A DNA stretch of 59,812 nucleotides from Candidatus Staskawiczbacteria bacterium. Lineage in GTDB: Bacteria > Patescibacteriota > Minisyncoccia > Minisyncoccales > Staskawiczbacteraceae. How positions within the stretch are numbered: the stretch's first letter is position 1; each line of letters starts with the position of its first letter. The translations under genes and the position numbers were made by a program. The DNA lies in the NCBI GenBank assembly GCA_041659225.1, contig JBAZYR010000007.1, positions 1 through 59,812 on the forward strand, written 5' to 3'. Below the pieces are notes generated by a model. That model was not told the DNA's origin. It saw only the letters and a program-made list of their open reading frames with translations, and ran no database searches. This document shows, piece by piece, positions 6,388 through 54,796 of the stretch.

Positions 6388-9300
6388 TTATTTGGACATA
6401 CCATTCACCCACCCCCGCGTCCCAGGCCCGAAGTAACCGGTGGCAGAAATCGTGTAACCAGATAAATTGGATATTTCTGCTTTGTATTTATTCTGGAAGC
6501 ACTGAACTGCCTTTAGAGTCAAAGGACCAAAGTAGGTGGTATTGGAAACTCCGGATATGCAATCTTCTGCAGCTAAGATTAATTTTAGCTGGATAACATC
6601 CTTATCGACTATCCCCAGGTATAGGTTCTTGTTAAATATATATTGCAACTCGGGATCAGTGACTTTCTCCTGATTGTAGACAATACTGTCTGATACCGCA
6701 GCGGAAGCCTGTCCATATTTAGTGAAGAACTTAGCGTAGATAGTCTTTGTTCCATTACCTTCGGGGAGCATCCATGTTGTTGTCGCAAGATATTGCGTTT
6801 GAACCGCATTAGTAAACTCAGGGTTGTCAGAGAGTGCCATTCTGAGAGTGTCAGAACCTGCGGCAAGGGCAAGAGTAACTATCCTTGAGTTAGTCGTTGA
6901 AGCATTGCTGTTGATAGAGACAGAAAAACCCCCTTGAGGAATGATTGGGGGTTGAAGGGCTCCAGCGGGCAAACCACCTCCACCGCAACTTAAAGTGGTG
7001 GCAGCAGAGATGTCTGTGTAGCTAGTCGACAGTCCATCCCCGTTTCTAGCTTTTACCTTAAAGGAGTAGCTTTTGCTACAAGTAAGGTCTGAGGACGCCC
7101 AAGAAGTATCGGTCGTCCAACCTGAATTAGTAGAAGCCGTGGTGTTTTCAATATAGTATTGGGTGCCGACTGGATTGGAATTGGCTGACCAGGAAGCAGT
7201 GATTTGAGAAGCTGAGTCAGCAACAAGCGTCAGTGAAGAAGGGACATTAGGAAGAACATTGACCGTAATCGAACCCGTACCGGTCCCAGGATAAGGCCAA
7301 TCATCAGTTGCACTGACAACCAAAGTAAATTGTGAATTAATTTGAGAATCGAAAGCCGATGGATCATTTACTGTTATCGCACCAGTGGAAGAATTAATCG
7401 CAAAAGCACTGCCGGTATTACCGCTGACGAAGGCGTAAGAAAGTGAATCGCCGCCATGGGAATCAGTCGCGCTAACTGTGCCCACTGCGGTACCGGCGAC
7501 TGAACCGGTGGTAATCGATAGGGTGGCAGCAGTGACTGCGGGCACGCTGTTAGGTACAAAAGCACTTAAGTCCAACGCGGTGACCTGATAACCGCCGCCA
7601 TCACCGAGAGTAACGATAGCGTCATTAATCTCATCAATATACCTACCGATAAAAGGACCGCTGACCACCGTCTGATTGGTCAAAACGAGAACGGGCTGAT
7701 CGTTAACGACAAAAAATCCGGCGTCGCCAGAGTCCCCAGCAATAATGTCTCCTCGAAAAGCATAGCGTTCAGAATCGGTTGGTGAAGGCGTTTCATGAAT
7801 GATTGAGGCATCAGTAATTGTCCCAAGGCCGAACCCCACCATATCTTTTAGAATCGGACTATCAAGTTGGTTGAATAATACTAGAGGAACGCGGAGACTG
7901 GAAGAATAGTCTTTAAATTGCTCGTACGACATGATGGGATAGTAAGCAATCGTGGCGGGAACTGCTGCGTTAAGCACCAATAATTGTATATCAGAGTCGC
8001 CAATCTGCATCTGGTCAGACACTGTTCTGCTAACAATGGTATTGTCAGCTGTTACAAAGATAACCGTGGAATTGTTGTTTATAGGATAGTGGTTGGCAAC
8101 CAAAACATGAAGCGGAGTAATTAAGGTACCAGCACGATAATAGCCATTGGAGTTCCATGGCGAAACACCGGTGAAGTCAAGGTCTGCCCCCCAAAAAGAA
8201 CTGTTTCTGCTCCAGCCGCTAGCTCCGTTACCTCTGGTCGCCCAAATATCTTGGGTGGAGTCACTGGGAGTTAGACTGGTTAAACGATTCTCCACCTCGT
8301 AGGTCATTTCTTCACAGAGATCCGATGAATTCAAGGGGGAACAGCCCACCACCGATGAAGGCCAGGTCTCATCCTCTGTAATGCCGACGCTAACCGGAGA
8401 GGCGTCGTAATTGTTATAATCCGTATCGGTCGAAGTGATTGATTCGGTAATCTGCGCGATTCTATTGCCAGAATAAGCAGAATCATTTAAAGCTGAAACA
8501 GTAACAGTTTGGCCGATACTCCAATTGTCAGCAGTAAATGTAAGCGTGCTAGGAGATATGGAAATCGAAGAACCGTAACCGGGAGCAGTAACAGCTAACG
8601 AGATAACAACATTGGCAGTAGGTTCAGTTGAGAGACTGATGGAGAATGAATCGCTTGCGCCCTCCGTGACAGAGACTGTAGATGGTGAGGCTACTGGCCG
8701 AGGCGTAGTATCAGCTAACAGTGAGTACGAAAAAATAGTCCCAACGTTGGCATTGCCACCGATACTGGTCAACCCGTAGAGCGTGGAGCCGGAAAGGACT
8801 AAGGACCCATAGGGATTAGCACCGTCATCAACCCCGCCGGCGAAATTGTGAAGCACCGTGAAGCCCGAGCCGTCAACTCCGACTGAAAAGATATCTCCAA
8901 CGAGGGAACTGCCGCCAGTACTGGTCATTCCGTAAAAAATGGAGTCAAAGATAATAAGTGATCCTAAAGGATTATTCCCAGCTGCATTTATAAAATCGTA
9001 AAGCACCGTGAAGCCCGAGCCGTCAACTCCTACAGAGAAAATTGTTCCGACGTTAGAATCGCCCCCGCTCTTAGTCATTCCATAAAGCGTGGAGCCGGAG
9101 AGGACCAGAGAATCATAACTAGGACTAGCGCCGTCATTAGGCTGGCCGGCAAACTCGTGAAGCAGAGTGAAGTTTAAACCATTAGTTCCGATTGAAAAAA
9201 TAGTTCCGACGTTGGCGTCGCCACCAGTGTTGGTCATTCCATAAAGCGTGGAGCCCGAAAGTATCAAGGAGCTATATGGATCAGAACCGTCAGCAACTCC

Positions 9301-9900
9301 GCCGGCAAATCGATGAAGTAAAGTGAAGTTTGAACCGTCAACTCCGACTGAAAAGATTACTCCGACGTCGGCAAGACTACCACCATTTTTAGCCATTCCA
9401 TAAAGCGTGGAGCCGGAGAGGACTAAAGCACCAAAAGGATAAGAGCCATCATTAATCCCGCCGGCGAACTCGTGGATTAGAGTGAAGGCTGAACCATCAA
9501 CTCCCATAGAAAAAATAGTGCCGGCGCTATTATCGCCGCCAAGAAGGGTCATTCCATAGAGCGTAGTGCCGGAAACAAGCAAGGAACTGCCATAATAGGG
9601 CCAAGCGCCATCGTTGACCCCACCGGCAAACTCGTGAAGAATAGTGTAGGTGGTGAGATCATCCGGATCAACTGAAAAAATCGTTCCGGCGTCGTCATTA
9701 CCTCCATTGGTGGTCATTCCATAAAGCGTGGAGCCGGAAAGAACCAAGGACCCTTGCGGAGTCTTGCCGTCAGCAACCCCGCCGGCAAACTCGTGCAGCA
9801 TAACGGTACTGGTCGCGCTAGCCATCGCTGGGATAATGATAACGCTAAAACAAAATAGAGAAATTAGCGATATATATATTTTACGAGAGAACATTACCAT
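6388..9900 (-). CDS. Multidomain secreted surface protein: 7 GloVer-type repeats, Calx/Ig-like region, trypsin-like serine peptidase domain, cadherin-like repeat, FN3, C-terminal peptidoglycan-binding domain
   Basis: Signal peptide. Seven ~53-aa units of LHEFAGG..DG..P.GSLVLSGSTLYGMT..GG....GTIFS....DGS.FT. Triad-like motifs TPLHVLVANH / DSDIQLLVL / GDSGDAGF (Ser codon 7729-7731). Cadherin-like ATDSHGGDSLSYAFVSGNTGSAFAINSSTGAITV. FN3-like PSSLTLVADSASQITASWS. PG_binding_1-like YFGPLTLKAVQCFQNKY. Confidence 0.75.
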   Translation of the reverse strand: MVMFSRKIYISLISLFCFSVIIIPAMASATSTVMLHEFAGGVADGKTPQGSLVLSGSTLYGMTTNGGNDDAGTIFSVDPDDLTTYTILHEFAGGVNDGAWPYYGSSLLVSGTTLYGMTLLGGDNSAGTIFSMGVDGSAFTLIHEFAGGINDGSYPFGALVLSGSTLYGMAKNGGSLADVGVIFSVGVDGSNFTLLHRFAGGVADGSDPYSSLILSGSTLYGMTNTGGDANVGTIFSIGTNGLNFTLLHEFAGQPNDGASPSYDSLVLSGSTLYGMTKSGGDSNVGTIFSVGVDGSGFTVLYDFINAAGNNPLGSLIIFDSIFYGMTSTGGSSLVGDIFSVGVDGSGFTVLHNFAGGVDDGANPYGSLVLSGSTLYGLTSIGGNANVGTIFSYSLLADTTPRPVASPSTVSVTEGASDSFSISLSTEPTANVVISLAVTAPGYGSSISISPSTLTFTADNWSIGQTVTVSALNDSAYSGNRIAQITESITSTDTDYNNYDASPVSVGITEDETWPSSVVGCSPLNSSDLCEEMTYEVENRLTSLTPSDSTQDIWATRGNGASGWSRNSSFWGADLDFTGVSPWNSNGYYRAGTLITPLHVLVANHYPINNNSTVIFVTADNTIVSRTVSDQMQIGDSDIQLLVLNAAVPATIAYYPIMSYEQFKDYSSSLRVPLVLFNQLDSPILKDMVGFGLGTITDASIIHETPSPTDSERYAFRGDIIAGDSGDAGFFVVNDQPVLVLTNQTVVSGPFIGRYIDEINDAIVTLGDGGGYQVTALDLSAFVPNSVPAVTAATLSITTGSVAGTAVGTVSATDSHGGDSLSYAFVSGNTGSAFAINSSTGAITVNDPSAFDSQINSQFTLVVSATDDWPYPGTGTGSITVNVLPNVPSSLTLVADSASQITASWSANSNPVGTQYYIENTTASTNSGWTTDTSWASSDLTCSKSYSFKVKARNGDGLSTSYTDISAATTLSCGGGGLPAGALQPPIIPQGGFSVSINSNASTTNSRIVTLALAAGSDTLRMALSDNPEFTNAVQTQYLATTTWMLPEGNGTKTIYAKFFTKYGQASAAVSDSIVYNQEKVTDPELQYIFNKNLYLGIVDKDVIQLKLILAAEDCISGVSNTTYFGPLTLKAVQCFQNKYKAEISNLSGYTISATGYFGPGTRGWVNGMSK
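8700..9804 (-). repeat. Seven tandem ~159-nt coding repeats (GloVer-type units)
   Basis: The string cattccataaagcgtggagcc(g/c)ga(g/a)a recurs at ~9071, 9237, 9395 and 9716, and in degenerate form elsewhere. Confidence 0.8.
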
Positions 9901-11288: not shown

Positions 11289-13154
11289 TTATTCTAAAAT
11301 TGCTTTAATTCTTCTAACGCCCGCGCTAGAAGACTCTTCTTTTTGGATTTTAAAATGGCCCAGTATTCCTGTCGTCTCAACGTGCGGGCCTCCGCATATT
11401 TCCCTACTTGTAGTTTCATTATAATCGCCGATAGTATAAACCTTAACCTTGTCCCCGTATTTTGATTCAAAAACTCCCATGGCGCCGGATTCGTGGGCTT
11501 GGTTCAAATCCATTTCTTCACAATTTACAGGAAGATTCGCCTCTATCGCCTTGTTAACGAAATCCTCAACAAGCTTAATTTGCTCGGGTGTCATTTTCTC
11601 TTTGTGGAAAAAATCAAACCTTAAACGTTCAGCATTTATGTTGCTTCCTTTTTGCGTAACATGGTCGCCCAAAACTTTTCTTAAGCCGGCGAGCATTAAA
11701 TGCGCAGCCGTATGTAGCTTTGTTGTTTCTAAACTCGCATCTGCTAAACCGCCCTTAAATGCGCCCGCCGAAACAGTTCGAGATAATTCTTTGTGCTTCA
11801 CAAATTCCTTCTGGAATTCCTCCATATCCACCTCCAATCCTTTCTCTTTTGCTAGTTCTTCGGTCATCTCAATCGGGAACCCGCATGTTTGGTAAAGATC
11901 AAAGGCATCTTTACCGGAAATCGTATTTTTCCGCCATATGATCTCACACTCCTTTAATCCCTTTTCTAGGGCCAAAACAAATTTTTCTTCTTCAGCATCT
12001 AAGCAAGCGGCGATAAAGCTGAGGTTCTTTTCTATCTCGGGGTAAACCAAAGCATAGTCCTTTGCTATTATCTTGGCTATTTCTTTTGTCCACGAGGCTT
12101 TGCAAATCCCCAATAGCTTTCCAAATCTTATTGCCCGTCGGATTAATCTTCTTGCAATGTATCCCTGACCTACATTGCTCGGGCTGATGCCGCTATCGTC
12201 CCCGATTATAAAGGTAACGGCCTTTAAATGGTCGGCTACGATTTCAAAAGCTTTTATATTGTCTTTATACCTTTTTCCGGACAGCTCCTCTATCTTAGAT
12301 ATGACGTTGACGAATAAATCTGTCTGAAAAATATTATCCAATCCTTCAGTCACCATAGTCATTCTCTCTAACCCTCCCCCAAAATCTACATTGAATTGTT
12401 TTAGTTTCTCAAATCCTTTTTCTGTTTTTTTATACTCCATAAAAACGCTGTTCCCTATTTCAATAAATCTTCCGCAGTCGCAGTTAACATGGCACGGCTG
12501 GTCAGCGAATACTGAGTTTTCATGTTTCTTTAAGTCAGCTCCCAGGTCATAGAATATTTCGCTGTCCGGACCCCCTATTTCCCCCACTGGCATTTTTTCT
12601 GGAGAGCCAGATCTTGACCACCAATTTTTGCTTCCCGGGTAGTAAAAAATCCTGGCATCCCCCATGCCTTTTTCTTCGGCGAAATCCAGATCTTTATTAT
12701 CAAGGTCGCGCTCTTTTAATATCGCCTTCCAAATATTTACGGAATCTTCGTCCTTCTTCACCCCTATTTTTTCGTCTCCGCGGAAAACGGTGACGTATAG
12801 GCGACTGGGGTCGATCTTTAATTCGTCGACTAGGAAAGAAAATATCCAAGGTAATTGTTCTTTTTTGAAATAGTCCCCTAAGGACCAGTTACCAAGCATC
12901 TCAAAAAAAGTAGTATGACGTCCGTCGCCTACTTCCTCGATATCTTCTGCCCGAAAAGACTTCTGCGAATCAGTTAAACGAGTTCCCAAAGGATGTTTTT
13001 CTCCGAGTAAATAAAGAACAAGAGGCTGCATACCTGAGCCGATGAATAAAGTCGAAGAATCATTGACTGGGATTATTGAAGAACTGGGAATTATAGCGTG
13101 GTCTTTGGACTTAAAAAAGTCTAAAAATTTCTGCCTTACGTTAAAGGAATTCAT
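11289..13154 (-). CDS. alaS: Alanine--tRNA ligase, short form (621 aa; catalytic, tRNA-binding and editing domains; no C-Ala domain)
   Basis: FLDFFKSKDHAIIPSSSIIPVNDSSTLFIGSGMQP; editing motifs HTAAHLMLAGL and CGGPHV. Start moved to ATG 13154 (MNSFNVRQKF), because the track start at 13253 runs through a terminator hairpin. Confidence 0.9.
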   Translation of the reverse strand: MNSFNVRQKFLDFFKSKDHAIIPSSSIIPVNDSSTLFIGSGMQPLVLYLLGEKHPLGTRLTDSQKSFRAEDIEEVGDGRHTTFFEMLGNWSLGDYFKKEQLPWIFSFLVDELKIDPSRLYVTVFRGDEKIGVKKDEDSVNIWKAILKERDLDNKDLDFAEEKGMGDARIFYYPGSKNWWSRSGSPEKMPVGEIGGPDSEIFYDLGADLKKHENSVFADQPCHVNCDCGRFIEIGNSVFMEYKKTEKGFEKLKQFNVDFGGGLERMTMVTEGLDNIFQTDLFVNVISKIEELSGKRYKDNIKAFEIVADHLKAVTFIIGDDSGISPSNVGQGYIARRLIRRAIRFGKLLGICKASWTKEIAKIIAKDYALVYPEIEKNLSFIAACLDAEEEKFVLALEKGLKECEIIWRKNTISGKDAFDLYQTCGFPIEMTEELAKEKGLEVDMEEFQKEFVKHKELSRTVSAGAFKGGLADASLETTKLHTAAHLMLAGLRKVLGDHVTQKGSNINAERLRFDFFHKEKMTPEQIKLVEDFVNKAIEANLPVNCEEMDLNQAHESGAMGVFESKYGDKVKVYTIGDYNETTSREICGGPHVETTGILGHFKIQKEESSSAGVRRIKAILE

Positions 13155-13200
13155 TAGGTAATTGTAGCTTAATAAAAAAGGAAATTCAAATTTAATGTAT

Positions 13201-13234
13201 AAAAAGAGGCCTCCGGAGGGTTGCCCCGGAGGCC
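13201..13234 (-). terminator. Strong intrinsic terminator ending structured RNA element A, about 45 nt upstream of the alaS ATG
   Basis: Minus strand: GGCCUCCGG-GGCAACCCU-CCGGAGGCC (9 GC-rich bp) followed by UCUUUUUAU. Confidence 0.8.
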
Positions 13235-13766
13235 CTTGGCATGCGATTCGCACGAACTTCCTGTCAGGAAGACACAGTGCGGCGCCGAAAAAGGGCTCGC
13301 ATACCTATACTAGGGCCAGAGATGATCTCTGGCGAGAAAATGTGCTAAAAAGATGGACAGTTGACAGACGGCTTGAGCTGTCGGTTTGAGTGTCGGCGGC
13401 GGGCGTTTTGCCCTGAATCGGACTATGTCGCCGATAGGGTAGCAACGTTGCCCCCAGAATCTCGGAACCACAGCGTGGGACCGGCCCGCGTTCACGCGAA
13501 AGCGCTCCCCGGGCATCGTTGGGCCGTTGGTAACCGTTTTGTGCAACTCTAGAATTGCACAATCATTCGCCTCAGTGACAAACTGGTGGCTCTCCAAGAG
13601 AGTCAGTCTGAAACTACTCAGCTTACATCGCTTGGCACACGATGCATGCTTTCGGTCCGCATAAATAGCGGGTTAGGCGAATACTGTCAACTGTCCAGGA
13701 GATTACTTATCACCAAATATGATAAACAATCTACTGGACAGCTGATATTCTTAAATGAACAACCAC
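13201..13766 (-). ncRNA. Unclassified GC-rich structured RNA or leader (element A) between the ykuK-like gene and alaS
   Basis: GC-rich block in an AT-rich genome, with overlapping ORFs in several frames. Perfect 13-bp closing helix 13696-13684 / 13367-13355. Nested helices 13682-13675 / 13572-13565, CAGACUG/CAGUUUG (G-U valid only on the minus strand), GUGCAA/UUGCAC and CGCG-UGAA-CGCG. Own promoter and terminator. Confidence 0.6.
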
Positions 13767-13772
13767 TCTGGT

Positions 13773-13800
13773 ATATTAGCAAATCAATACTGCTTGTCAA
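13773..13800 (-). promoter_or_regulatory. Sigma70-like promoter for element A / alaS
   Basis: Minus strand: TTGACA (13800-13795), 16-nt spacer, TAATAT (13778-13773). Begins 4 nt after the ykuK-like stop codon. Confidence 0.55.
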
Positions 13801-32704: not shown

Positions 32705-32808
32705 CATAGGCTTCCCTCCGGATAGGTAGGCGTGATCAGGAACGCAAACCTTTCGCGACCTACCTATCTATTTATATAGAAACGGCTCGTTTACGAGCCG
32801 ACGAACCC

Positions 32809-32914
32809 GGAGAGGGGGCATGCGCACATCCAGGCCACATGCCCTGGATGAAAATCTTTGTGGTAGAACCAACCCGAACCGAACCACGAGTTTTATTGCC
32901 CCCTCCCCTTTTTT
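32809..32914 (+). ncRNA. Candidate Y-shaped small RNA or elaborate terminator
   Basis: GGAGAGGGGGCA (32809-32820) pairs with UGCCCCCUCCCC (32897-32908) with one A-C mismatch. It encloses hairpins CAUCCAGG-CCACAUGC-CCUGGAUG and GUGGU...ACCAC, and is followed by U6. Confidence 0.3.
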
Positions 32915-32925
32915 ACATTCAAAAA

Positions 32926-32950
32926 CCAGCGAAGGATTCCCCCTCGCTGG
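32926..32950. terminator. Bidirectional terminator between convergent units
   Basis: CCAGCGA ... TCGCTGG stem, flanked by A5 upstream and TTTTGTTTTTT downstream; 10 nt from the stop of the 32960..34651 gene. Confidence 0.65.
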
Positions 32951-32959
32951 TTTTGTTTT

Positions 32960-34651
32960 TTATTTATCAGTCAAATCCTCTATATCCTTAACTTCTTTTA
33001 TAACAGCCTTTTCTGTGGCTTTGAGCGCTTCTTTCAAACTATCACTGATTTTCTTTTCTTTCGCAGTCAAACCAGGCTTGCCATCAAGCTTAGCTATCTC
33101 CTTCTCTATTTTTTCCCGCAAAATTTCAAAAGACTTACGGAAATTTTCCTCGATTTTTTTAGCTTCCTTCTTTATCTTCCGCCTTCTCATAATAAACCGA
33201 CGGCATAGATATGCCAGCAATACTAAAATGCAGAGTATCAAAATTCCCAAGCCGATTAAAACACTGGGACAGCTAAGATTTAACTGGCCGAACTCAAAAA
33301 TACTCTGTGCAGAAACAATTGAAGAATATCTTGAAGTCGGATTGCTTTTTGCACCGCGCTGGTCAATTGCCTCCAGCCAAAACTCGTAAGATCCCTTTCT
33401 TATTCGGTCTTGCCAAATAACCGTAAAGTTTCCCTTCTCGTCAGCGGTTACTTCTTTTGAAGAAATTTTTTCGCTGCCTTTAAGCTGGAGAAAAATCCGG
33501 ACGGTTGATTGGGGATAGCTGGTTCCCTGGACAATAAAAGGATCATTCTCCATAATCTTTTCAGAATAATCGGTAACTACCGGCGCATCGATAGCTGCAA
33601 CTTCAAATTCCGCAGATTCAGCCAAGAAATTGCCTGCTTCGTCCACAGCTTTTACAGAAATTGTGTGTTTTCCCGGATCCATGGCCTGGGTTTTATAGTT
33701 TCCGGCTGGTTCGATATTTTTTACTTCCTGTCCATCGATTTGGACTTCATAGTGATCAATACCGGAAGTTTCATCACTAGATTCAAGAGAAAATTCTGCC
33801 TGCGGATCCGTTAAATCAGAACGTTTAATTTCTTGTATCCGGAGATATTCTGGTTTCTCTGTATCAATCTGGAAAGCAAAATGCGAAACCTCTCCCCAGC
33901 CGCTACTCGTACGTGCTTGCATGTGAAAATACCACTTGCCTTCACCAATATTATCCAATTGTTTTTCTGCCACAGCAGGCTCATAAAGAACGTTTGGCGA
34001 GGAAGAAGCTCCTCTGCTGTAAAGAAGTCTTACGCCGGAAGCGCCGCTAGGCAATGTCCAATTGAATTTAGGGTTTGCATTTGCATACCACTTTGTAGAG
34101 TCAGGATGAGTAGTTGAATAGATGGTAGAAGTAACAGGCGGCTCAGGAGTTTCCGGAGTTTCTGCGCTGGTAGTTAATACATAACTGGCGCCTGTCATAT
34201 TTCTCAATACATTCGTTCCTAAGCCGTCGTTCGACAACACCGACCCGCTGGAGAAAACTACGGATGCCGTGCCGCTGCTTTTAGCCCTGAAGGTAACTGT
34301 CATTATCTTCCCTTTATTCCCGGAAAACCCAGGGTTTAAAACAATTCCTTCAAAGTTAAACGTGCCGCTGCTATTTGAAAATATCGGCTCTTGAACCCAT
34401 AAACTTATGATAGAGCCGCTCTTTGAGATAGAAACCGCTTCTACCTTATTTGAAGGGAAGGTTACCACTCCGGAAATAGCATTTATTGTTTCTGACGGTG
34501 CAGCGACATAAACGCTCATAGAAAAATTCTGGCCCACGGTGAATGACCCGGAAGCCGGGCTAATAGACAAGTCTGCGGCCTGCACCAGAGCTGGGGCAAA
34601 AGCCAAAAGACTTAAAAACAAGACTGACGACAAAATTATTTTTTTCTCCAT
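32960..34651 (-). CDS. Cohesin-like domain surface protein with Ig/FN3-like repeats, C-proximal TM helix and charged cytoplasmic coiled-coil tail
   Basis: Signal peptide. DLSISPASGSFTVGQNFSMSVYV...INAISGVVTFPSNKVEAVSISKSGSII...GKIMTVTFRAKSSGTASVVF. TM helix VLIGLGILILCILVLLAYLC, then a KE-rich tail. Confidence 0.6.
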   Translation of the reverse strand: MEKKIILSSVLFLSLLAFAPALVQAADLSISPASGSFTVGQNFSMSVYVAAPSETINAISGVVTFPSNKVEAVSISKSGSIISLWVQEPIFSNSSGTFNFEGIVLNPGFSGNKGKIMTVTFRAKSSGTASVVFSSGSVLSNDGLGTNVLRNMTGASYVLTTSAETPETPEPPVTSTIYSTTHPDSTKWYANANPKFNWTLPSGASGVRLLYSRGASSSPNVLYEPAVAEKQLDNIGEGKWYFHMQARTSSGWGEVSHFAFQIDTEKPEYLRIQEIKRSDLTDPQAEFSLESSDETSGIDHYEVQIDGQEVKNIEPAGNYKTQAMDPGKHTISVKAVDEAGNFLAESAEFEVAAIDAPVVTDYSEKIMENDPFIVQGTSYPQSTVRIFLQLKGSEKISSKEVTADEKGNFTVIWQDRIRKGSYEFWLEAIDQRGAKSNPTSRYSSIVSAQSIFEFGQLNLSCPSVLIGLGILILCILVLLAYLCRRFIMRRRKIKKEAKKIEENFRKSFEILREKIEKEIAKLDGKPGLTAKEKKISDSLKEALKATEKAVIKEVKDIEDLTDK

Positions 34652-53950: not shown

Positions 53951-54376
53951 TTATATTAAAAAAGCTAACACTAATCCTGAAACCGGCCAAAGACAATAAA
54001 AAATCGTTGATATCATGTGTTGCTTGGTGGATTTGCGGATAATAAAATATGGCAGAAAGGTAAGAAAACCCCAAAGCTGAATCAGAACTATTGATCCTGG
54101 GATAAATAAAAGAGGGCTGGATAGAAAGGGGTTTTTCCACAAAAGTTCAAAGCCGTACATGATTATTAACATTGCGATCAAAACCCTTCGATAGTTCCAA
54201 TTTTTTACAAAAAGCAAAAACCAAAATATGAGAATGATAAAAAGATACTGCAGCAAAATCCAGGGCATGTATGACACCCATACTGACAAGTTTGTTCTCC
54301 AAGTCGTGATGTATTCGATAATTATCCAAAACACGAACGAAAGTATAATATAGGCCCTTGCTTTGCTTTTATCCAT
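53951..54376 (-). CDS. Hypothetical 4-5 TM membrane protein
   Basis: Hydrophobic ORF abutting mnmA. The track start at 54412 is a TTG inside the terminator U-tract, so I prefer ATG 54376 (MDKSKARAY...). Confidence 0.55.
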   Translation of the reverse strand: MDKSKARAYIILSFVFWIIIEYITTWRTNLSVWVSYMPWILLQYLFIILIFWFLLFVKNWNYRRVLIAMLIIMYGFELLWKNPFLSSPLLFIPGSIVLIQLWGFLTFLPYFIIRKSTKQHMISTIFYCLWPVSGLVLAFLI

Positions 54377-54413: not shown

Positions 54414-54437
54414 GAAAAAGGCCACGAGTGTGTGACC
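54414..54437 (-). terminator. Intrinsic terminator ending structured RNA element B
   Basis: Minus strand: GGUCAC-ACACUC-GUGGCC (contains a G-U pair that would be a C-A mismatch on the plus strand), followed by UUUUUCGUU. Confidence 0.6.
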
Positions 54438-54762
54438 TATGCGGAATGAAGGAATAAATTGGAAAAGAGCAAACGCTGCTGGGCAGTCGACAGGGTTGGT
54501 GTAGGGTATGCGCCCAAGTAAGAGCATCTCATGCACACATTGGGTCCGGGATCCACCCTAGCTCTCCTTGGGAATAATCCCAAAACCTTGTTTCGGGAGT
54601 CGGCTCCCGAATCATCCCTATCCTACGCACCACCTGCGCGTGGAGGTTGTGCCATGGCTAGCACCAGCTTCTCTGTGATGCTTCGGCCCTGTCAACTGCC
54701 CAGCAAATTAGTAATTAATTGAATAACAACTAATTTGCCGAGCATTTAACAGTTTTACAACC
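54414..54762 (-). ncRNA. Unclassified GC-rich structured RNA or leader (element B) between nifU and the membrane-protein/mnmA/thiI operon
   Basis: 18-bp closing helix 54704-54687 / 54495-54478 (G-U on the minus strand, C-A mismatch on the plus). Inner helices AGCAUC/GAUGCU, GGGAG-CCGA-CUCCC, UUGGGA-UUAU-UCCCAA and GCGCA-GGUGG-UGCGU. Own promoter and terminator. Confidence 0.6.
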
Positions 54763-54768
54763 AGAGTC

Positions 54769-54796
54769 ATAATAGCAAATAAAAGCTTAATGTCAA
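54769..54796 (-). promoter_or_regulatory. Sigma70-like promoter for element B
   Basis: Minus strand: TTGACA (54796-54791), 16-nt spacer, TATTAT (54774-54769). Begins 8 nt after the nifU stop codon. Confidence 0.55.

Follow-up and report, generated by a model that had tools for sequence, protein, structure and literature searches.

The stretch of DNA analysed here (the window) comprises 59,812 nucleotides from Candidatus Staskawiczbacteria bacterium, and it carries two GC-rich intergenic elements, A and B, on the minus strand of a genome with a GC background of about 41%. Its proteins were matched best by those of Staskawicz-, Portnoy- and Kuenenbacteria. Element A lies between a gene of the RNaseH_like family (PF04308) and alaS; element B has iscS and nifU upstream and an open reading frame for a 141-amino-acid membrane protein (ORF141), mnmA and thiI downstream. 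As an earlier note on this DNA had described, with the right identities for the downstream genes, both elements start within 10 nt of the preceding stop codon and end in an intrinsic terminator upstream of the next coding sequence (Table 1). The sequences of the elements were identical between independent assemblies, and a single orientation was seen in all nine of them (four for A, two for B and three for A', a related element in the relative designated L205). Both elements were compared with the loci of relatives, which are labelled with L-numbers (L205, L220, L221 etc.). The sampling comprised seven AlaS lineages at about 70-76% AlaS identity and, for nifU, 80 metagenomic loci together with the closest NifU relatives (80 + 4 loci in total). 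A survey for clamps, here terminal helices of at least 14 bp that close a GC-rich interior, covered about 540 kb from roughly 90 genomes of the Candidate Phyla Radiation (CPR).

Promoter, clamp and core of the two elements

The earlier note had taken A and B for paralogous copies of one cassette that share collinear blocks. The promoter and leader blocks were all found on the minus strand: TTGACA at the -35 position (A 13800-13795, B 54796-54791), ATTTGCTAWTAT at the -10 position (A 13784-13773, B 54780-54769), TGGTTGT at the predicted transcription start (A 13765-13759, B 54763-54757) and TAG(A)TTGTT in the 5' arm of the leader hairpin (A 13733-13725, B 54732-54725). The block of the closing helix, TGGRCAGTTGACAG, was present in both elements, at 13697-13684 in A and, one position away from the coordinate first given, at 54702-54689 in B; its complement was at 13367-13354 and 54493-54480, respectively. 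The motif GRCCGAA(A)GCAT had been placed just inside the helix of both elements. This is true of B (54688-54678), but in A the motif lies 27 nt further in (13657-13646).

Only two of the shared blocks beat chance, namely a near-consensus sigma-70 promoter, which is generic in the clade, and the 14-nt clamp. The clamp pattern TGGRCAGTTGACAG matched the window four times, exactly at the four helix arms, when 0.34 matches were expected, and none of 100 shuffles reached four. The sole A/G difference between the two clamp blocks was offset by a U/C difference on the opposite arm. The promoters matched 10-11 of the 12 consensus positions and had a TG-extended -10 box. The combined 28-nt promoter pattern was found only at A and B in the window, yet 3 of 100 shuffles gave at least two matches when 3 mismatches were allowed. 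The same promoter type (TTGACA...TGCTAATAT) also occurs in other genomes, ahead of unrelated genes (L129, L132) and ahead of cassettes (L205, L220, L221), indicating that it is the strong promoter of the clade and not evidence of paralogy.

When A was compared with B against dinucleotide shuffles, the z score was 4.8 for promoter and leader together and 1.9 for the leader alone (23 of 500 shuffles were as good). Core and trailer scored 0.95 and 0.5, respectively, and nhmmer detected no similarity of the two elements at E ≤ 100. The true signal shared by A and B is a common 5' frame plus an identical clamp, and the structured cores are not similar. Of the proposed paralogy, a common layout and a shared clamp sequence were supported; the cores are unalignable and the promoter is generic. 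The 5' frame (13684-13800 in A and 54687-54796 in B) was about 60% identical and extends from the -35 box over TGGTTGT and the two arms of the leader hairpin as far as the clamp. In other genomes, the cassettes have neither the TGGTTGT start nor the long leader hairpin. The resemblance of the two frames suggests frame duplication or concerted evolution within the genome.

Table 1. Coordinates of the features of elements A and B in the window
Feature	Position	Strand	Description
Promoter of A	13773..13800	-	TTGACA, 16-nt spacer, TG-extended TAATAT; begins 3 nt past the RNaseH_like stop codon (13804)
Leader hairpin of A	13687..13745	-	Minimum-free-energy fold; 5' arm is UCAGCUGUCCAG
Clamp 5' arm of A	13684..13697	-	UGGACAGUUGACAG
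Core of A	13368..13683	-	316 nt, 56% GC; core-only folding z -2.4; no Rfam match
Clamp 3' arm of A	13354..13367	-	CUGUCAACUGUCCA
U-rich tail of A	13347..13353	-	UCUUUUU, adjoining the clamp
Intrinsic terminator of A	13200..13235	-	Strong; 12-bp stem with 9 G-C pairs, then T-run
Promoter-like site of alaS	13161..13189	-	TTGAAT, 17 nt, TACAAT; separate, outside the cassette, marks the end of A
Promoter of B	54769..54796	-	TTGACA, 16 nt, TG-extended TATTAT; 11/12 consensus positions; begins 7 nt past the nifU stop codon (54804)
Leader hairpin of B	54703..54738	-	Centroid fold; holds the TAGTTGTT block of the earlier note
Clamp 5' arm of B	54687..54706	-	UUGCUGGGCAGUUGACAGGG; 20 bp, one of them G.U; pairs with a probability of about 1
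Core of B	54496..54686	-	191 nt, 55% GC, multi-branched; core-only folding z -2.6; no Rfam match
Clamp 3' arm of B	54476..54495	-	CCCUGUCGACUGCCCAGCAG
U-rich trailer motif of B	54463..54473	-	UUUGCUCUUUU; sole TTTGYTCTTYT match in the window
Intrinsic terminator of B	54414..54438	-	Rather weak; 7-bp stem and T-run

Folding z scores of whole elements ranged from -3.5 to -7.3. The cores on their own had negative scores in all nine cassettes (-1.4 to -4.0), and the sense strand was the more negative in 7 of 9. In the minimum-free-energy fold of A, the leader 5' arm (UCAGCUGUCCAG) imitates the 3' arm of the clamp and sequesters the 5' arm, and a small hairpin lies between the UCUUUUU tail and the terminator. 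In B, the leader hairpin overlaps the clamp, or stacks on it, with the base of its 3' arm, and in the centroid fold the 5' leader was able to pair with the trailer, resembling a long processing stem.

The earlier note could match the elements to no known RNA family, and neither could we. With Rfam 15 at the gathering threshold, cmscan reported only a tRNA-Pro in the whole window; at E ≤ 10, A and B gave chance matches to miRNAs and small RNAs and none to a riboswitch, T-box, RNase P RNA, 6S RNA, signal recognition particle (SRP) RNA, transfer-messenger RNA (tmRNA) or Y RNA. No Rfam, tRNA or tmRNA match was obtained in the cassette regions of the relatives, and ARAGORN found neither tmRNA nor tRNA in A or B, nor a tmRNA in the relatives' regions. 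RNase P, tmRNA, SRP and tRNA-like readings, based on a comparison by eye with consensus motifs (GGAAAGUCC/ACAGAA, a G3.U70 acceptor and a 3' CCA), were rejected, as the motifs were inconsistent between cassettes and neither the covariance models nor ARAGORN gave a match. A coding or pseudogene origin was rejected as well: the six open reading frames of A and B had no Pfam match above threshold, the antisense frame of B reaching a sub-threshold Transglut_core match (E = 0.13; 13 bits, the cut-off being 23). A search of 1.84 billion protein representatives gave no homologue of the longest frame, the sense frame of A (95 amino acids). A mini-ORF in the clamp (xUG GRC NNU UGA) was inconsistent between cassettes.

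Stem-clamped cassettes in related genomes

Related elements were found in the tpiA/RNaseH_like-alaS spacer of three relatives (L205, L220 and L221), around unrelated GC-rich cores. L205 has one cassette (A'), whose clamp CUGGGCAACUGACGGG is paired with CCCGUCAGCCCCA, with its own promoter and terminator. The gene-free 1.8-kb tpiA-alaS spacer of L220 (1212-3000) holds five tandem cassettes (c1-c5) of 206-325 nt each, with two internal TTGACA promoters plus terminators, and at least three cassettes (d1-d3) were present in L221. Because c2 ends in a 3' arm that complements the 5' arm of c3, adjacent cassettes of L220 could also pair with each other. Promoters and terminators in sense orientation were observed at every cassette.

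The clamps were recognisably alike between genomes, as seen in UGGACAGUUGACAG (A), UGGGCAGUUGACAGGG (B), UGGACAGUUGGUAGG (c3) and GGAUAGUUGGCUGG (d3) and further in AGGUAGUUGGUGGG (c2), ACAGCUGACAGG (c5) and UGGACGUUUGACGCG (d1), and their consensus was 5' GGRYAGYUGRYRGG with its complement on the 3' side. In an alignment of six in-register cassettes from three genomes, 98.9% of the cells were paired and 9 of the 15 pairs had double changes. None of 500 shuffles was as good, and slid registers dropped to 22-44% paired. The trailer motif TTTGYTCTTYT occurred once in the 60-kb window (at B) and three times in the 1.8-kb array of L220, always just 3' of a clamp; as RNA, UUUGYUCUUYU followed 4 of 11 clamps. 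Clamps of at least 14 bp with GC-rich interiors were found in three of the roughly 90 CPR genomes surveyed (those of the window, L220 and L221). The clamp of L205 is shorter and interrupted, and counting it brings the number to four.

None of the cores, whether of A, of B or of the relatives' nine cassettes, could be aligned with another, and the clamp was the sole similarity in an all-against-all blastn of nine cassettes. When A, B and A' were used as nhmmer and blastn queries against about 200 loci, nothing was found beyond the elements themselves. Clamps with compensatory changes, which the proposal of the earlier note requires, do exist in the relatives. A 15-mer scan of the genome contigs gave chance matches only. 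Among phages and plasmids, distant blastn searches with A, B and the arrays of L220 and L221 were negative. A two-arm clamp scan of IMG/VR returned six matches with B-type spacing, all by chance (coding or tandem repeat), and none with A-type spacing. No description of such cassettes was found in Rfam or in the literature searched.

Candidate explanations for the cassettes

We read A and B, with about even confidence, as independent minus-strand noncoding RNA genes that belong to a lineage-restricted family, the stem-clamped cassettes of a Paceibacteria-like clade in the CPR. A cassette usually has a strong sigma-70 promoter to itself, and a terminal helix of 14-20 bp and conserved sequence joins both ends of the RNA. 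The helix encloses a multi-branched, GC-rich core (80-320 nt) that is unrelated in sequence from cassette to cassette. Behind it comes a U-rich tail, often with the sequence UUUGYUCUUYU, and then the next cassette or an intrinsic terminator. Clamp and tail may act together as a constant functional handle, probably a module for double-strand processing, protein binding or end protection, and the core would be a variable, stably folded body. The architecture, the family membership, the strand, the covariation of the clamp and the missing conservation at orthologous sites follow directly from the sequences; as far as the layout suggests, the RNAs would also be transcribed, processed at the clamp and possibly active in trans. 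The cassettes would sit in strongly transcribed operon spacers and affect their neighbours only passively: A appears to be insulated from alaS, and B probably feeds ORF141-mnmA-thiI. No promoter was found between the terminator of B and the start of ORF141 (54376). B may thus be co-transcribed with ORF141: given the weakness of the terminator and the lack of a further promoter at this place, transcription of ORF141-mnmA-thiI is probably supplied from the promoter of B, a passive effect rather than sensing.

The handle is modelled by analogy with the terminal stems of rRNA, 5S RNA and Y RNAs, many stable RNAs being processed, bound or protected by means of an end-to-end helix beside a U-rich single strand. 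In rrn operons, long helices between 5' and 3' flanks, which RNase III or a related enzyme cleaves, surround the stable RNAs, with several stem-enclosed RNAs per unit and a strong promoter. The cassettes likewise have a long helix that encloses an RNA, several per transcription unit, and a strong promoter; however, their cores are not rRNA (no Rfam match). The trailer UUUGCUCUUUU may resemble the core UGCUCUUU of boxA, but its position after the stem is atypical. The boxA element (UGCUCUUUAACAA-like) is bound by NusB/S10. Y RNAs (Ro/Rsr; bacterial YrlA and Yrn1) are also paralogues with a conserved terminal stem, a U-rich 3' tail and differing interiors. Unlike them, the cassettes have no Y_RNA or YrlA match, much larger cores, a different stem sequence and no bulged Ro site, and no rsr/TROVE gene was among the flanking genes scanned in the window. 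The large orphan RNAs OLE, ROOL, GOLLD and raiA share with the cassettes elaborate GC-rich folds, the status of independent genes and a narrow taxonomic range. Each of them has a conserved covarying core, whereas the cassettes conserve only the terminal clamp and the tail.

Several observations weigh against the reading as independent RNA genes. The clamp of A had a probability of 0 in the full-length ensemble, as the leader hairpin outcompeted it; since this hairpin is thermodynamically favoured, the clamp of A may form only after 5' processing, or never. The clamp alignment held 7 G.U against 1 A.C cells, an excess that favours RNA pairing on the strand predicted from the promoters but is only suggestive, as the clamps were partly chosen by eye and with a script that tolerated G.U and not A.C. 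The family was seen in just four genomes among roughly 90 sampled loci. No orthologue was found for any single core, so that covariation lends no support to the helices inside the cores. A functional RNA family would not normally have unrelated cores, and the patchy presence at the same locus and the tandem arrays are equally expected of selfish DNA.

Selfish or recombining DNA is the strongest of the alternatives, and we consider it rather unlikely. The inverted 14-20-bp ends would then be DNA sites that move variable cargo, as in miniature inverted-repeat transposable elements (MITEs), REPIN-like elements or recombination cassettes, and RNA folding would be a by-product. Conserved inverted repeats around unrelated interiors, patchy presence at orthologous spacers and tandem arrays would all follow from such mobility, and so would the contrast within the window between an A/B frame that is about 60% identical and cores that are unrelated, as though swapped inside it. 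The Correia/NEMIS, REP/BIME/REPIN, BOX and RPE repeats are similar in that they are intergenic in operons, have inverted ends that give RNA hairpins, vary in presence, occur in clusters and can carry promoters or terminators. However, these repeats are 30-200 bp long and have a common interior, while the cassettes enclose 80-320 nt of GC-rich, folded sequence that differs from one to the next without any relationship; the nine-cassette blastn revealed no internal sequence in common of the MITE, Correia or REPIN kind. There were no target-site duplications or direct repeats at the ends inspected (A, B and A'), no transposase or recombinase in the flanks and no RAYT; the flanking genes of the elements are nifU, iscS, mnmA, thiI, tpiA, the RNaseH_like gene and alaS. 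An inverton would be expected in both orientations, but the nine independent assemblies showed only one, and phages, plasmids and IMG/VR gave no matches. The promoter and the U-rich trailer are conserved outside the repeats, and the asymmetry of G.U over A.C together with the negative core z scores fits selection at the RNA level.

The earlier note had proposed a riboswitch or T-box-like leader tied to genes of tRNA charging and thiolation, that is, a cis-acting leader or attenuator which, depending on a sensed signal, would end transcription or let it run on into alaS or ORF141-mnmA-thiI. We now regard this as improbable. Like a riboswitch or T-box, each element is a structured RNA that is framed by promoter and terminator and shares the strand of the genes that follow, among them one for an aminoacyl-tRNA synthetase, and 4 of the 7 AlaS lineages have cassettes ahead of alaS. 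The leader hairpin and the clamp of A are mutually exclusive pairings, and expression of mnmA-thiI from the promoter of B would need read-through. However, all cores compared upstream of alaS (A, A', c1-c5 and d1) were unalignable, showing that there is no conserved aptamer; no T-box (RF00230) or riboswitch covariance model matched even at E ≤ 10, and no T-box sequence was seen. The terminators of A and B had pair probabilities of 0.9-1.0 in the full-length ensembles with no competing fold; both thus form at a probability of about 1 and no antiterminator is visible.

The comparison of orthologous sites pointed the same way. The remaining three AlaS lineages have no cassette before alaS: the spacer is 113 nt in L208, 258 nt and AT-rich in L211 and 15 nt in L222. 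At nifU, the sequence or clamp of B was found in none of the 80 metagenomic loci, and in about 37 of these the next open reading frame begins less than 60 nt from nifU. The two closest NifU relatives (80-81% identity) have iscS-nifU-mnmA-thiI with gaps of 25-82 nt and no B. Because both B and ORF141 are missing at the nifU-mnmA junction of all sampled relatives, they were inserted into an older isc-mnmA-thiI operon. Nor were the homologues of ORF141 that could be inspected (about ten are known) preceded by such an RNA, and a specific link between B and ORF141 was rejected; a link to the RNaseH_like gene was also rejected, its presence being uncorrelated with cassettes. Downstream of the terminator of A, alaS has a promoter-like site of its own, which stops 7 nt short of the ATG at 13154 (start taken from the gene calls). 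The tie to tRNA charging and thiolation is thus positional only. The tandem cassettes of L220, with their internal promoters and terminators, are laid out like a series of RNA genes rather than like a leader. Taken together, the absence of B from its orthologous junction, the lineages with alaS alone, the separate alaS promoter and the missing antiterminator make for a poor fit to a riboswitch or T-box.

It is very improbable that the elements have no common function and are GC-rich intergenic filler in which a consensus promoter and an inverted repeat coincide by chance. The similarity of core, leader and trailer between A and B was indeed not significant, but the clamp pattern stood far above expectation, the clamp recurred with covariation in other genomes, the trailer motif recurred and the folding z scores were consistently negative, so that this reading is already largely refuted. 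Highly divergent housekeeping RNAs (RNase P RNA, 6S, SRP RNA or tmRNA) missed by Rfam in CPR bacteria would match the sizes (about 345 and 225 nt), the terminal stem between 5' and 3' ends, the strong promoter and the high GC content, but their probability is close to negligible, given no model match at E ≤ 10, no tmRNA by ARAGORN, absence from the same loci of close relatives with no conservation even at 74% AlaS identity, and five different cassettes in one spacer of one genome.

Neighbouring features and implications for CPR bacteria

Other structured stretches were observed in the window and in the relatives. A third GC-rich, very strongly folded intergenic stretch lies at 32705-32962 of the window, after a tRNA-Pro gene and an open reading frame of 80 amino acids (z -7.8 on the plus and -6.9 on the minus strand). 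It has a long-range helix (GGAGAGGGGGCA/UGCCCCCUCCCC), then a T-run and then a separate terminator at about 32926-32955; this is the layout of the cassettes (clamp, U tail, terminator) with an unrelated clamp sequence and no Rfam match at the gathering threshold. In L171, two tandem structured repeats of about 300 nt (about 1240-1960) lie directly 3' of nifU and are unrelated in sequence to A and B. The closest NifU relative (L213/L214, 3831-3956) has a 16-bp clamp (GGGGCTTGCTTCTCGG/CCGAGAAGCAAGCCCC) around a 94-nt interior of 59% GC between iscS and nifU. This small, stem-closed element is in the same operon as B's and differs in clamp sequence.

Among the neighbouring genes, the mRNA of alaS is probably leaderless, given that the promoter-like site (window 13154-13189) ends so close to the ATG; L205 and L208 resemble the window at alaS in having the -10 box a few nt ahead of the start codon. 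ORF141 (53951-54376) lacks a Pfam domain, and only about ten homologues of it are present in 5.8 billion proteins. One of these (L219) is on a contig that also encodes an archaeal-looking ribosomal protein S27e, a hint that transfer has taken place between CPR bacteria and organisms resembling DPANN. At 6388-9900 of the window, a protein of 1170 amino acids with cadherin and fibronectin-III repeats is encoded between glxA and infA in the ribosomal-protein supercluster, and it is missing at the glxA-infA position in L205, L208, L220, L221 and L222.

A more far-reaching version of the RNA-gene reading, which by analogy we entertain as speculative and unlikely, is that the clamp (GGRYAGYUGRYRGG and its complement) and the U-rich tag would be a universal handle for a dedicated protein of the CPR clade, with interchangeable, fast-evolving cores as cargo in a modular, arrayed RNA cassette system within the ribosomal-protein supercluster. 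If so, the cassettes could serve as decoys, as scaffolds or as an RNA-based repertoire for interaction or defence, and the logic would be akin to Y RNA-Ro or to array-encoded guide systems, with no known counterpart.

Cassettes of this kind, placed before genes, may be mistaken for riboswitches, and a check of the orthologous junction in relatives resolves the matter quickly. CPR bacteria have tiny genomes with little spare DNA, yet some of their lineages appear to devote as much as 1.8 kb in the spacer of a core operon to arrays of strongly promoted, tightly folded RNAs that match no database family. Conservation of the terminal stem and tail alone, with the body left free, is unusual among bacterial RNAs. 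The pattern points to an unrecognised RNA-handling protein or processing route in CPR bacteria, or to a new structured selfish element.

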